In this document: positions 34,037 through 44,113 of the stretch, piece by piece | Layout: every line of letters starts with the position of its first letter | How positions within the stretch are numbered: the first letter of the stretch is position 1 | Origin: an uncultured Fibrobacter sp. | Lineage (GTDB): Bacteria; Fibrobacterota; Fibrobacteria; Fibrobacterales; Fibrobacteraceae | NCBI GenBank assembly: GCA_946414075.1 | Contig: CAMKNA010000008.1 | Location: 7,687 to 71,686 of the forward strand | Length of the DNA stretch: 64,000 nt | Direction: 5' to 3' | The notes under the pieces: model-generated | The model's database searches: none | Told to the model about the DNA's origin: nothing | What the model saw: only the letters and a program-made list of their open reading frames with translations | Made by a program: the position numbers and the translations under genes

Positions 34037-34131
34037 GAGTTAGAAACAAGCAGGACAAGGCACGAGCTCCCGTAGCGTACTAAAGCGTACGTGAGGGAGC
34101 GAGTAACGCAGTAATGCGTAGTTTATAACTC
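34037..34131. repeat. About 95-bp palindromic MITE-like element overlapping the lysA stop codon
   Basis: Terminal inverted repeats GAGTTAGAAAC / GTTTATAACTC (10/11); internal hairpin GCTCCC-GTA-GCGTAC-TAAAGC-GTACGT-GA-GGGAGC. Confidence 0.55.
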
Positions 34132-35382
34132 GATAATTCTATCGTTTTGCAATAGCTGTTCGAACGACTGACGCTCGCGGATAACCTTCAGTTCACCCTT
34201 GGTGTACATGGTCTCGGCGGCATAGCGGCGGCTGTTGTAGTTGCTGCTCATGGCGGCCCCGTAGGCACCGGCGTCGTGGAGGATCAGCAGGTCGCCCACC
34301 TTGGCCTTGGGGAGCTTGCGGGTCACCACGAATCCGCCCTCTTCCTGGGTGAACACATCGCCGGATTCGCAGAGCGGGCCTGCCACGATGGCGTCCACCG
34401 TTTCGTCAAGATGGCGACCGTCACGGGCGATGATGGAAATGCCGTGGTAGCTGCCGTAGAAGCTGGGGCGTACCAGGTCGGTAAAGCCGGCATCTAGCAG
34501 GTAGAACAGGTTGTCGCCCTGCTTTTTCACGGCGCGGATTTCGGCCATCAGGTAGCCGCTCTCGGCCACCAGGTAGCGCCCGGGTTCCACTTCTAGATGT
34601 ACCTCGTGGCCGATGCTCTGCTGGATACGCTTGCGGGCGTTGTCCCACAGATCAAAGTAGGCCTTCATGTCGATGCGGTTGCCCTTGTCTTCCTCATGGT
34701 AGGGAATGGGGAGGCCGCCCCCTGCGCTGATGGTGCGAACATGGCTACCCAGGCGGCGGCTAGCGTCTACCATGGCGTCGCAAACTTGGGAAAGGTGCTC
34801 GAAGTCGGAGCCGGAACCGATATGCATGTGCAGTCCCGTAATCCACATGCCGTTATTCTGGGCAAGCTTGATGCAGTCCTTGATCTGCTCGTGCCATACG
34901 CCGTGCTTGCTCAGGGGGCCGCCGGTGTTCACCTTGCTGGAGTGGCCGTGGCCAAAGCCTGGGTTCACGCGGAGGGTCAGTTCCGACTTCACGCCGAAAT
35001 CGGCCAGCTGCTGGATCATGTCGGGGGAGCCCACATTCACCGCGATGTTGTGTTCCTTCACCAGTTCGAGAGCGTCACGGTCAAAGATGTCGGCGGTATA
35101 GACGATTTCGGGAGCCTTGCCCTTTTGCTGGCCGCCCTTGAAGCCCGCCTTGAGGGCGCGGACGATTTCGCCTGCGGAGACGGCATCGACTACGCCGCCC
35201 AGCTTACGAACAAGCGAAACGATGGAGAGGTTCGGGCATGCCTTCTGGGCAAAGCGGACCGTATCGAAAACCTGGGTTTCTTTGACTCGCTTTTCGATGG
35301 TCTCGCGGTCGTAAATCCAGAGGGGGGTGCCGTACTGTTCAGCGGCCTTTACAAAAACTTCTTCGGGGATAGTGTAATTCAT
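34123..35382 (-). CDS. lysA: Diaminopimelate decarboxylase
   Basis: GTPLWIYD, FAQKAC (PLP Lys), HMHIGS, EPGRYLV, GPLCESGD, GAYG..MSSNYN. Start set at MNYTIP. Confidence 0.96.
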   Translation of the reverse strand: MNYTIPEEVFVKAAEQYGTPLWIYDRETIEKRVKETQVFDTVRFAQKACPNLSIVSLVRKLGGVVDAVSAGEIVRALKAGFKGGQQKGKAPEIVYTADIFDRDALELVKEHNIAVNVGSPDMIQQLADFGVKSELTLRVNPGFGHGHSSKVNTGGPLSKHGVWHEQIKDCIKLAQNNGMWITGLHMHIGSGSDFEHLSQVCDAMVDASRRLGSHVRTISAGGGLPIPYHEEDKGNRIDMKAYFDLWDNARKRIQQSIGHEVHLEVEPGRYLVAESGYLMAEIRAVKKQGDNLFYLLDAGFTDLVRPSFYGSYHGISIIARDGRHLDETVDAIVAGPLCESGDVFTQEEGGFVVTRKLPKAKVGDLLILHDAGAYGAAMSSNYNSRRYAAETMYTKGELKVIRERQSFEQLLQNDRIIEL

Positions 35383-35402: not shown

Positions 35403-35433
35403 AAAAACGCCGAGCGACATGCCCGGCGTTTTT
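35403..35433 (-). terminator. Intrinsic terminator after the CBM48 gene
   Basis: AAAAACGCCGAGC-GACAT-GCCCGGCGTTTTT. Confidence 0.8.
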
Positions 35434-35454: not shown

Positions 35455-35853
35455 TTAGACGTTCTTGATCTTGTTGTCGCCTTCGTCCCAGTACTGACCG
35501 TCGCACACGAACTTGTACTCGTACTGGCCAGCGTCCAGGGCCACCTTGCCAATCCAGAGACCGGTCTTCTTGTCCTTCTTGAGCATATCCTTGTCGATAG
35601 CCCAGTTGTTGAAGGAACCGGCGACGGAAACGGTAGTGGCCAGGGGGCAGTTGGCTTCGAACACCACGGTTACTTTCTTGGAAGCCTTGGGGGCAGCCTT
35701 CTTGGCGGGGGCCTTAGCGGCAGCCTTCTTTTCGGCGGCGGGCTTGGTAGCCTTAGGAGCAGCCTTGGTGGCGGCCTTCTTGGCCGGAGCGGCCTTTACG
35801 GCAGCCTTCTTGGCGGCGGGGGCCTTTGTTGTTTTTGCAGTAGCTTTTGCCAT
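35455..35853 (-). CDS. Lys/Ala/Pro-rich histone-like tail fused to a glycogen-binding CBM48 (AMPK-beta type) domain
   Basis: Residues 1-60 are PAKKAA-type repeats; then VAGSFNNW and GQYEYKFVCDGQYW; SD AAGGAG; own terminator. Confidence 0.88.
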   Translation of the reverse strand: MAKATAKTTKAPAAKKAAVKAAPAKKAATKAAPKATKPAAEKKAAAKAPAKKAAPKASKKVTVVFEANCPLATTVSVAGSFNNWAIDKDMLKKDKKTGLWIGKVALDAGQYEYKFVCDGQYWDEGDNKIKNV

Positions 35854-36045
35854 GATAATCTCCTTTACTTAGTCCGGGCCCAAAGATAGTAAAAAAAAGT
35901 TTAACTGTCTAATAAAAAATGAAATTATTTGAAAAACGCTGGTTTACGGGTGACCAATTGCTGAAATTAGGCGAAAAAACGGCTTTGACATGGTGAGGAA
36001 AACTATCTATTTTGGTGCGTAAATAAAATAAAGGAGCAAATTCAA

Positions 36046-39060: not shown

Positions 39061-40236
39061 ATGAACCTGACACGCTATTCTTTTGGACTTGCTGCATGCG
39101 CAATTCTCGTAGCCTGCGGAAGCAATGCTCCGCAGCCTGCAGTGGAACCCGCTGAACCTGCAGCCGCCCCCGCTCCCCAGGTTTCCCTGGATAGCGCCGT
39201 GGACCGCTACAGCTATGCCTTGGGCATGGATTTGGGTAAGGCCATAGCCAATATAAATGTGCCAGTCAAGATGGATGTGCTGATGCTTGCCATCCAGGAC
39301 GAAGTGGATCCTGCCCGCAAGGCGCTCCTGTCTGATTCCGCTTCGGAATCTGCCTTGCAGGACCTGCTGCTCCGTATGCAGAAGCAGAAGGAAGACGACG
39401 AGAAGGCCGCCGCCGCCAAGGCCCTGGAAGACCAGGCCGCGTTCCTGGCCAAGAACATCCAGGATTCTACGGTGAAGGTCACGCCCAAGGGCGTTCAGTA
39501 CCGCGTGCTCAAGGCCGGTACGGGCATTTCCCCCAAGGTGACGGACAAGGTCCAGGTGCACTACATCGGTGCCTTGCTGGATGGGACCCAGTTTGACAAT
39601 AGTGTCAAGCGTGGCGAACCTTTGGAATTCCCCGTGGGCGCTGTCATCGAAGGCTGGCAGGACTTGCTCCAGGCTATGAAGGAAGGCGACAAGGTGAAGG
39701 CCTGGATTCCTAGCGCTCTCGCCTATGGCGAAGCTGGCGTTCCGCCTACCATTCCTGGAAACGCCCTGTTGATTTTTGAAGTGGAGCTTCTGAAGGTCTA
39801 TGCGGAAGTGCCGCCTGCTGCTGAAGCTGATTCTGCGGCGGTTCCTGCCGACAGTGCCACTGCTGCTCCTGCTGATCCTGCCAAGGCTGCCGCTCCTGCG
39901 GATACTACCGCCAAGGCCGAAGCCAAGCCTGCCGCAGCCGCTCCTGCCGACACGACGAAGGCTGCGCCTTCTAAGGCCGCCCCTGCTGCCGCCAAGCCCG
40001 AAGCTAAGGCAGAAGCCAAGCCTGCCGCAGAAGCTGCTCCTGCCGCTAGCGCTACCGCCCCTGCTCCAGAAGCCAAGCCTGCCGCAGAAGCCGCCCCTGC
40101 TGCCGCCAAGCCCGAAGCTAAGGCAGAAGCCAAGCCCGCTGCTGCCGCTCCTGCCGCAAAGGCTGCTCCCGCTGCTAAACCCGCTGCAGCACCGGCAAAA
40201 GCCGCTCCTGCCGCCAAACCGGCTGCCAAGCAATAA
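39061..40236 (+). CDS. FKBP-type peptidyl-prolyl isomerase lipoprotein (FkpA/Mip-like) with long Ala/Pro/Lys tail
   Basis: Lipobox LVAC; SYALG; VHYIG..DGTQFDNS, VIEGW, IPSALAYG, LIFEVELL. Confidence 0.93.
   Translation: MNLTRYSFGLAACAILVACGSNAPQPAVEPAEPAAAPAPQVSLDSAVDRYSYALGMDLGKAIANINVPVKMDVLMLAIQDEVDPARKALLSDSASESALQDLLLRMQKQKEDDEKAAAAKALEDQAAFLAKNIQDSTVKVTPKGVQYRVLKAGTGISPKVTDKVQVHYIGALLDGTQFDNSVKRGEPLEFPVGAVIEGWQDLLQAMKEGDKVKAWIPSALAYGEAGVPPTIPGNALLIFEVELLKVYAEVPPAAEADSAAVPADSATAAPADPAKAAAPADTTAKAEAKPAAAAPADTTKAAPSKAAPAAAKPEAKAEAKPAAEAAPAASATAPAPEAKPAAEAAPAAAKPEAKAEAKPAAAAPAAKAAPAAKPAAAPAKAAPAAKPAAKQ
39976..40136 (+). repeat. 47-bp exact direct repeat in the FKBP tail (39976-40022 and 40090-40136)
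   Basis: GCCGCCCCTGCTGCCGCCAAGCCCGAAGCTAAGGCAGAAGCCAAGCC twice, 114 bp apart. Confidence 0.85.
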
Positions 40237-42883: not shown

Positions 42884-44113
42884 ATGAACGCTGCAATTTT
42901 GACTAACGAATTTCCACCGGAAATCTATGGCGGTGCAGGTATCCATGTCAAGTTCCTGACCCAGGAGCTGGCAAAGCTTTGCCATATCGAGGCGCGCTGT
43001 TTTGGTACGCAGAATGTGGATGAGAACAACATCCATGCGCTAGGCTTTTCCCGCAAGCTGGGGCTGAACCCTGAAGACGACCGGTTCCAGAAGATTTTCA
43101 AGCCGTTGGATATCAACCTCCAGTGGGCGGCCGCTCTCAAGGATATAGATGTGATCCACTGCCATACATGGTACAGCCATTTTGGCGGTGTGCTGGCCAG
43201 CCGGCTTTTACAGTGCCCGCTGATACTTACTACCCATTCCCTGGAACCCCACCGTCCGTGGAAGGCTGAACAGCTGGGCGATGGCGGTTACGCCATGAGT
43301 TGCTGGATTGAACGCACGGCCTACGAGGCTGCCGACGGCGTGATTGCGGTAAGCCAGGGCATGAAGCAGGATGTGATGAAGCTTTATGGTGTTCCTGAGG
43401 ACCGTGTGAAGGTGATTTACAACGGCATCGACCCGGACTTCTACGCGCCGACCTTCAACGAAGCCGTTCTTGAAAAATGGGGTGTGGACCCGAAGCGCCC
43501 CTATGTGCTGTTTGTGGGCCGCATTACCCGCCAGAAGGGCATCAGTCAGCTGATCCAGGCAATCCCGCAGATTGACAAGTCTGCCCAGGTGGTGCTTTGC
43601 GCGGGCGCTCCCGACACCATCGAACTTGCCGATGAATGCAAGGCCCTTATCGAGAATGTGCAGAAGACCCGCGATGGCGTGGTTTGGATTCAGGAGGCGG
43701 TCCCTCACGAGGAACTCCGCGTGCTTTATAGCCACGCGACTGTATTTGCCACACCTTCGCTCTACGAACCTTTTGGCATTATCAACCTGGAAGCCATGAG
43801 CTGCGGTACCCCTGTGGTGGGTAGCGCTGTGGGCGGCATCCCCGAAATCATCGTGGATGGCGAGACCGGATTCCTGGTGCCCCTGAAGCATGTCTCCGAA
43901 ACGGACTTTGACCCGGCGGACCCCAAGGCATTCCAGTCGGACTTTGCAAGTAAGCTGAACAAGATTCTCGAGAATCCTGAGCTGGCGAAGAAGATGGGCG
44001 AGGTGAGCCGCAAGCGGGCCATCGATGTGTTCAGCTGGAAGTCCATTGCCAAGCAGACCTACGACTTCTATGCCGAATGCATCGAGCGCTACAAGCGCGA
44101 AGGCAAACGGTAG
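42884..44113 (+). CDS. glgA: GT4 glycogen-synthase-like enzyme of the actinobacterial GlgA/GlgM type
   Basis: EFPPEIYGGAGIHV, HCHTWY, HSLEPHRPWKAEQLG.GGY..S.W.E, FVGRITRQKG, YEPFGIINLEAM. Confidence 0.88.
   Translation: MNAAILTNEFPPEIYGGAGIHVKFLTQELAKLCHIEARCFGTQNVDENNIHALGFSRKLGLNPEDDRFQKIFKPLDINLQWAAALKDIDVIHCHTWYSHFGGVLASRLLQCPLILTTHSLEPHRPWKAEQLGDGGYAMSCWIERTAYEAADGVIAVSQGMKQDVMKLYGVPEDRVKVIYNGIDPDFYAPTFNEAVLEKWGVDPKRPYVLFVGRITRQKGISQLIQAIPQIDKSAQVVLCAGAPDTIELADECKALIENVQKTRDGVVWIQEAVPHEELRVLYSHATVFATPSLYEPFGIINLEAMSCGTPVVGSAVGGIPEIIVDGETGFLVPLKHVSETDFDPADPKAFQSDFASKLNKILENPELAKKMGEVSRKRAIDVFSWKSIAKQTYDFYAECIERYKREGKR

Follow-up and report, generated by a model that had tools for sequence, protein, structure and literature searches.

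A conserved Fibrobacter protein that joins a histone H1-like basic tail to an AMPK-beta-type CBM48: a candidate tether between glycogen and the nucleoid

The locus and the encoded protein

The window, that is, the whole stretch of 64,000 nucleotides analysed here, belongs to an uncultured Fibrobacter sp. (assembly GCA_946414075.1). It includes a gene for a small protein formed by a basic tail and a carbohydrate-binding module of the CBM48 type, the gene lysA, and a glucosyltransferase gene. The relevant features are the following:

35455-35853, minus strand: gene for the basic-tail + CBM48 protein, 132 aa (open reading frame, profile matches, orthologs and, weakly, metatranscriptome contigs)
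35674-35853, minus strand: H1-like Lys/Ala/Pro/Thr tail, residues 1-60, net charge +18 (composition; the charge is conserved, the sequence is not)
35458-35673, minus strand: AMPK-beta-type CBM48, residues 61-132, with the L146/G147 hairpin deleted (profile, alignment, fold)
35860-35866, minus strand: Shine-Dalgarno sequence AAAGGAG (sequence; ortholog comparison)
35883-35911, minus strand: promoter-like site TAGACA-17-TATCTT (consensus match only)
35403-35433, minus strand: intrinsic terminator-like hairpin in the gap between the basic-tail CBM48 gene and lysA (sequence prediction)
34123-35382, minus strand: lysA, diaminopimelate decarboxylase, the conserved downstream neighbour (TIGR01048 above cut-off; 34/51 loci)
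42884-44113, plus strand: GlgM/GlgA-Coryne-type glucosyltransferase, same region, not co-operonic (TIGR02149 above cut-off)

Translation of the open reading frame at 35455-35853 gives 132 residues. The first 60 of these are composed of 26 alanines, 19 lysines, six prolines and five threonines, plus one each of methionine, valine, glutamate and serine, whereas residues 61-132 have a net charge of -1. The motif PAAKKAA is found at position 12 and PAKKAA at positions 23 and 49, just as the original prediction described this region; the AAKP motif was not found in the protein. Its other statements on the protein also stood: a signal peptide is predicted to be absent since the N-terminus has no hydrophobic stretch, and the Pfam profile search revealed no catalytic domain. 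No oligomerisation domain is evident in the protein, and it has no coiled coil of the kind present in PTST. Profile searches against Pfam and NCBIfam gave no match to HC2 or hist_H1_lk, nor, at E<=0.1, to any phasin or AlgP family. Close homologs are named in the databases as 'glycogen-binding domain-containing protein [Fibrobacter sp.]'.

The strong Shine-Dalgarno sequence that had been claimed for the gene is indeed there, 6 nt ahead of the ATG, and its AGGAG core is retained in 10 of the 10 orthologs displayed. A promoter-like TAGACA...TACTA pattern recurs 5' of several orthologs, and a hairpin with a T-run is found 3' of most of them. Expression of the gene is weakly suggested by contigs of three gut metatranscriptome studies that cover it; these are assembled contigs, from which neither level nor strand can be read.

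Genomic neighbourhood

The gene had also been considered monocistronic. The predicted promoter-like site and terminator-like hairpin agree with this view; however, lysA starts only 72 nt 3' of the gene on the same strand. This neighbour was found in 34 of 51 loci, always downstream and always on the same strand, and in genera g2, g3, g5 and g6 the final codons of the CBM gene and the ATG of lysA overlap. Judging from these arrangements, monocistronic status would hold at best for Fibrobacter. A separate observation concerns the beginning of lysA itself: in loci L034, L035, L040-L043, L045, L049 and L063-L065, where its start overlaps the end of the CBM gene, a conserved hairpin followed by a T-run lies inside the first 25 codons of lysA, and at one locus the hairpin shows a two-sided change. 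It is possibly a step-down terminator internal to a coupled operon. Attenuation of lysA by lysine through the Lys-rich reading frame was set aside, since ribosomes that stall while translating the tail would uncover the hairpin and so shut lysA off, which is the wrong direction.

A GlgA/GlgM-type gene and a phosphohexomutase had been noted within 8 kb of the CBM gene. Their positions are correct, but there is no conserved operon link and the arrangement lends no support to a glycogen function. glgM co-occurs with the CBM gene in 55 of 55 genomes of the family and is never adjacent to it; in relatives where one contig holds both, they are 24-116 kb apart, therefore their proximity within the window is no evidence, and a glycogen-operon context was rejected.

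The CBM48 domain

The assignment of the C-terminal part to an AMPK-beta-type CBM48 was confirmed by both profile and fold. It is recognised by the Pfam profiles AMPK1_CBM (34.8 bits versus a cut-off of 26.8) and CBM_48 (30.6 bits versus 22.4), and its AlphaFold model (pLDDT 96) is closest to the CBM of AMPK-beta (1z0m, the top match, TM 0.79) and to SEX4 (TM 0.82-0.84). The pocket of the AMPK CBM comprises W100, K126, W133 and N150 (PMC4625611). Glycogen binding by AMPK is abolished by the substitutions W100G and K126Q, and reduced by W133L and G147R, the effect of G147R being partial (PMC6274970). According to the alignment, the equivalents of the four pocket residues are W84, K114, W122 and N127; among the loci read, those of W100, K126 and N150 are invariant and the second tryptophan is nearly so, regardless of the hairpin deletion described below.

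The Fibrobacter domain thus resembles the AMPK beta-subunit and SEX4 modules in fold (TM-score about 0.8) and in its pocket residues, but it differs from them in two respects. It belongs to a stand-alone protein, and the beta7-beta8 hairpin, which in AMPK carries L146, G147 and T148, is missing: 11-13 residues are deleted in 36 of the 50 loci read, the 35455-35853 protein included. The deletion characterises Fibrobacter and three related genera, whereas the hairpin is retained in genera g2, g5 and g7 and in the order- and class-level members. Given the modelled fold and the conserved W/K/W/N set, the CBM48 of Fibrobacter likely binds glycogen. Because the hairpin is gone, its affinity could be lower than that of AMPK; binding by the hairpin-less form may be weaker, below that of AMPK, or of altered specificity.

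Conservation within Fibrobacterota

The CBM domain gave exactly one match per genome in 55 of 55 genomes of the family. It is also present in two order-level and two class-level genomes, one of the class-level matches being an anti-sigma-like fusion and not an ortholog. The original prediction would have been undermined by a tail absent in most orthologs, and the opposite was found: a long basic tail is present in all 46 family loci read and in 4/4 order- or class-level loci, bearing in mind that a few of the 'tail' labels in this survey are false positives on anti-sigma-like fusions. Within the family, the tail varies from 34 to 131 residues and its sequence drifts freely, yet its net charge per residue stays between 0.21 and 0.35 (about +0.25). 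This near-constancy over an approximately four-fold range of length points to selection acting on charge. Farther out in the phylum, the module is preceded by no more than a short basic leader, or it forms part of anti-sigma-like membrane fusions.

Family f4 departs from this pattern. The 132-residue query had no match in any of its 12 genomes, though glgM was detected in 11 of 12 and DUF4912 in all 12; hence, glycogen makers without the basic-tail CBM48 gene seem to exist.

Other basic tails in the same genome

About a dozen open reading frames of the source genome contain Lys-rich windows, including those with short tails on adenylate kinase and HU. Long H1-type Lys/Ala/Pro tails are confined to four of them, namely an 85-residue protein that matches the HC2 profile, a 358-residue protein, the basic-tail CBM48 protein and a DUF4912 protein; none was found on the GlgB or GlgM of this genome. 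Two of these four tails therefore belong to glycogen-linked genes, which is suggestive, the pattern having been spotted post hoc. A useful control is provided by the lipoprotein-type FKBP of the window (39061-40236, plus strand), whose 141-residue Ala/Pro/Lys tail has a net charge of only +3, revealing that DNA binding is not implied by composition alone. High net tail charge, in contrast, is specific to few proteins.

The DUF4912 protein (L066:6801-7937, minus strand; G000:C2:134800-135936) carries a basic K/A/T N-terminal tail of about 120 residues, and directly downstream is a GH57 branching enzyme (L066:5169-6800); its link with glycogen is based on this adjacency, DUF4912 preceding GH57 in 8 of 9 wide loci. 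By eye, a maltokinase-like gene stands beside this pair. Considered as a possible CBM, the DUF4912 domain was modelled as an FN3-like sandwich of generic type (best Z 8.7), which does not single out a glycan-binding fold. With rough start calls, a long basic N-terminus was assigned to DUF4912 in 28 of 35 Fibrobacterota loci, whereas in Verrucomicrobiota it was missing in nine of ten loci and present in one; one locus carries a Rho_N domain. Since few DUF4912 proteins outside Fibrobacterota have such a tail, a lineage-wide habit is possible.

Two further proteins deserve mention. The 358-residue protein (L067:1997-3073, minus strand; G000:C28:20496-21572) has an H1-like tail of about 130 residues, a possible two-CxxC zinc ribbon and an acidic C-terminus, and belongs to no Pfam family. 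The adenylate kinase (L069:1831-2484, plus strand; G000:C16:4830-5483) ends in a short tail rich in lysine, alanine and cysteine.

Related CBMs in other phyla

Related modules were found in other phyla, some of them joined to different candidate nucleic-acid-binding parts. In Verrucomicrobiota, a phylum sampled by way of a Chthoniobacteraceae genome, such a CBM occurs in 96 of the 201 genomes; 15 of the 30 best loci encode a long basic tail and the remainder shorter basic leaders. Several of these tails (L088, L094, L106, L108, L109, L110 and L179) include an embedded acidic xDLF or DLPL motif that is absent in Fibrobacter, and which we take to recall the sliding-clamp-binding motif. In Bacteroidota, 28 of 30 loci encode a short, tail-less, stand-alone CBM48, while the other two join a more distant CBM to a K/A linker and a helix-hairpin-helix (HhH) domain, the latter above the Pfam cut-off in one of them. 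HhH domains of this kind may be promiscuous in Bacteroidota. The two fusions, identified by domain search, are:

L112:1462-2127, plus strand: CBM48-K/A linker-HhH fusion, Bacteroidota
L131:1144-1773, minus strand: CBM48-K/A linker-HhH fusion, Bacteroidota

In Planctomycetota, ParA-CBM48 fusions were detected in six of 30 loci (L197, L205, L206, L210, L211 and L213). The presence of other candidate nucleic-acid handles on CBM48 relatives in three phyla is what a tether model predicts. Further searches for fusion partners gave matches dominated by multi-CBM proteins, and a contig scan with a single protein query gave nine loci.

Proteins that combine an anti-sigma-like region, a transmembrane segment and a CBM48 were observed in several phyla (L044, L050-L052, L055, L056, L058, L072, L074, L075 and L171-L175). 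Judged by eye, it is possible that they are anti-sigma factors that sense alpha-glucan.

In the tree of the domain, the long-N-tail groups of Fibrobacteria and Verrucomicrobiota are separate, although the AU test, performed on 88 columns, does not reject a single clade (p 0.138). A separate origin of the long N-terminal tails in the two groups is thus only suggested.

Comparison with known granule tethers

Tethering to the nucleoid is known for granules of PHB/PHA and of polyphosphate, and glycogen is not mentioned in a 2025 review of how bacterial organelles are positioned. In PhaM from Cupriavidus necator and PhaF from Pseudomonas putida, one end of the protein holds the granule while the other, histone-like and of Lys/Ala/Pro type, contacts DNA without specificity, and both proteins work without ATP (PMC13052382). 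The Fibrobacter protein is predicted to share this two-ended design; it differs from them in that its putative cargo is glycogen, contacted through a CBM48 instead of a phasin or PhaC-binding domain, in the N-terminal position of the tail, and in that an oligomerisation domain was not seen. AlgP of P. aeruginosa requires its H1-like tail for the even spacing of polyphosphate granules (PMC9239181); in comparison, the cargo and the folded domain are other ones here, and the tail has 60 residues instead of 154 and no tandem KPAA arrays. PhaH of Caulobacter also has a granule-binding and a DNA-binding end, the latter of HhH design (PMC13052382), which is mirrored by the Bacteroidota CBM48-HhH fusions and not by the Fibrobacter protein with its basic tail. 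The varied candidate DNA handles on glycogen-type CBMs parallel those of the PHB field, where tails occur in PhaM and PhaF and HhH in PhaH. A resemblance to ParA/McdA-type systems is not apparent, as ParA is neither fused to the CBM gene nor beside it; within this 82% complete genome, the 261-residue ParA is unfused and located on another contig.

By its sequence, the protein is not a member of the PhaM, PhaF or AlgP families, and its folded part is a CBM48 with an atypical pocket. It shares its annotation with the stand-alone 'glycogen-binding domain-containing' proteins of bacteria, which include relatives of about 100 residues in many phyla, most of them with only a few basic N-terminal residues; no functional study of these proteins was found in the open-access literature. 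The gene at 35455-35853 is the sole AMPK1_CBM match in the genome, at 82% completeness. A full-text search of open-access papers found no description of a basic-tail CBM48 protein; the original prediction likewise knew of none. The architecture is real, conserved and, on that search, undescribed, and its fold and distribution are likewise established.

A possible role in glycogen positioning, and its alternatives

Fibrobacter stores glycogen, as the original prediction had stated, and cycles it (PMC4432691). The unanchored glycogen of E. coli gathers into a condensate at the old pole, where it displaces the nucleoid, is inherited unequally and skews division (PMC11042326); a problem that a tether could solve does therefore exist. 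The best explanation, although we hold it with slightly less than even confidence, is that the protein is a passive tether between glycogen and the nucleoid that works in the manner of PhaM, PhaF and AlgP. It would be a cytoplasmic, non-catalytic adaptor with two ends. From fold and pocket residues, the CBM48 end would dock onto glycogen or maltodextrin, and from its composition the disordered polycationic tail would bind nucleic acids irrespective of sequence, most likely the nucleoid; we infer both activities, and with them the role in positioning. Many copies on each glycogen particle would provide avidity and attach it to the chromosome. This attachment would restrict the merging of particles into masses at the poles and divide the store among the daughter cells, by the ATP-independent mechanism of the known tethers applied to glycogen.

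The tether proposed originally is favoured by the invariable retention of the tail in the family (46/46) and by the other handles found in three phyla. The partial loss of the pocket speaks against it, considering that 36 of 50 loci lack the hairpin and that G147R partly disrupts binding in AMPK, as do the linkage to lysA in place of glycogen genes and the result for family f4 (0/12). Binding may also be weak, the CBM being single and monovalent and the protein having no apparent domain for oligomerisation. In addition, the distribution of the DUF4912 tail would fit a habit of the lineage, and basic extensions occur on adenylate kinase, HU and the 358-residue protein. Such extensions on unrelated proteins are also compatible with another role, that of a subunit which targets or scaffolds glycogen metabolism: its CBM would recruit enzymes, or the machinery of GH57/DUF4912, to the particle, and the tail would be a lineage-typical extension for acidic partners with no role on the chromosome. 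Plant PTST is a targeting/scaffold protein of comparable kind. The widespread tail-less CBM48 proteins (28/30 Bacteroidota loci) imply that the core function needs no tail, and the DUF4912 tail is mostly restricted to the phylum (28/35 Fibrobacterota versus 1/10 Verrucomicrobiota loci). Nevertheless, long H1-type tails are rare, with four in the genome and none on GlgB or GlgM, their constant charge density over a four-fold range of length suggests binding to a polyanion, and the coiled coil of PTST is absent; we regard this role as unlikely, though a serious contender. Somewhat less likely still appears a factor on the glycogen surface with a tail for RNA or ribosomes instead of DNA, which would act as a surfactant at the condensate border or, titrated by glycogen, as a regulator of translation. 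The KPAA region of PhaF from P. aeruginosa binds RNA and activates translation (PMC12818456), which also counts against the tether; ribosomes and RNA are excluded from glycogen condensates (PMC11042326), and DNA and RNA binding are indistinguishable from tail composition. The HhH and ParA partners of related CBMs, on the contrary, point to DNA, and the granule-spacing phenotypes of AlgP and PhaF depend on the same type of tail.

The resemblance of the tail to HC2-like proteins, one of which is encoded in the same genome, raises the idea of an H1-like nucleoid-associated protein that senses maltodextrin or glycogen through its CBM; the carbon reserves would then titrate it off the chromosome or onto it, thereby adjusting compaction or transcription. 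A hairpin-less CBM of lower affinity would suit a sensor, and F. succinogenes makes maltodextrins (PMC4432691). We find this idea improbable: HU and a dedicated HC2-like protein are already encoded in the genome, and we see no allosteric route by which the CBM could act on a disordered tail, which leaves sequestration as the only workable means. Least probable of all is a domain that no longer binds alpha-glucan, the protein being a basic one with an Ig-like cap, or a tail whose partner is polyphosphate or an anionic lipid. The deleted hairpin and the linkage to lysA instead of glycogen genes would fit a degenerate domain, but the invariant pocket tryptophan, lysine and asparagine and the nearly invariant second tryptophan would not; as for polyphosphate, a search for PPK1 did not find it in the source genome or in four near-complete congeners, that is, in five Fibrobacter genomes.

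Returning to the tether, a role of this sort has been described for other storage granules and none was found for glycogen. It could also be, though this is more speculative, that the protein belongs to a wider set of glycogen-positioning devices by which bacteria would actively organise glycogen on the chromosome, formed by CBM48 with a basic tail, HhH or ParA and by DUF4912 with a basic tail or Rho_N; in this set, the 132-residue protein would be the passive tether that determines how many granules there are and how they are inherited in a major lineage of rumen cellulolytic bacteria. This two-part protein makes the positioning of bacterial glycogen a directly testable question, it is a possible tool for relocating glycogen, and it bears on how the degraders of fibre in the rumen handle their reserve carbon.
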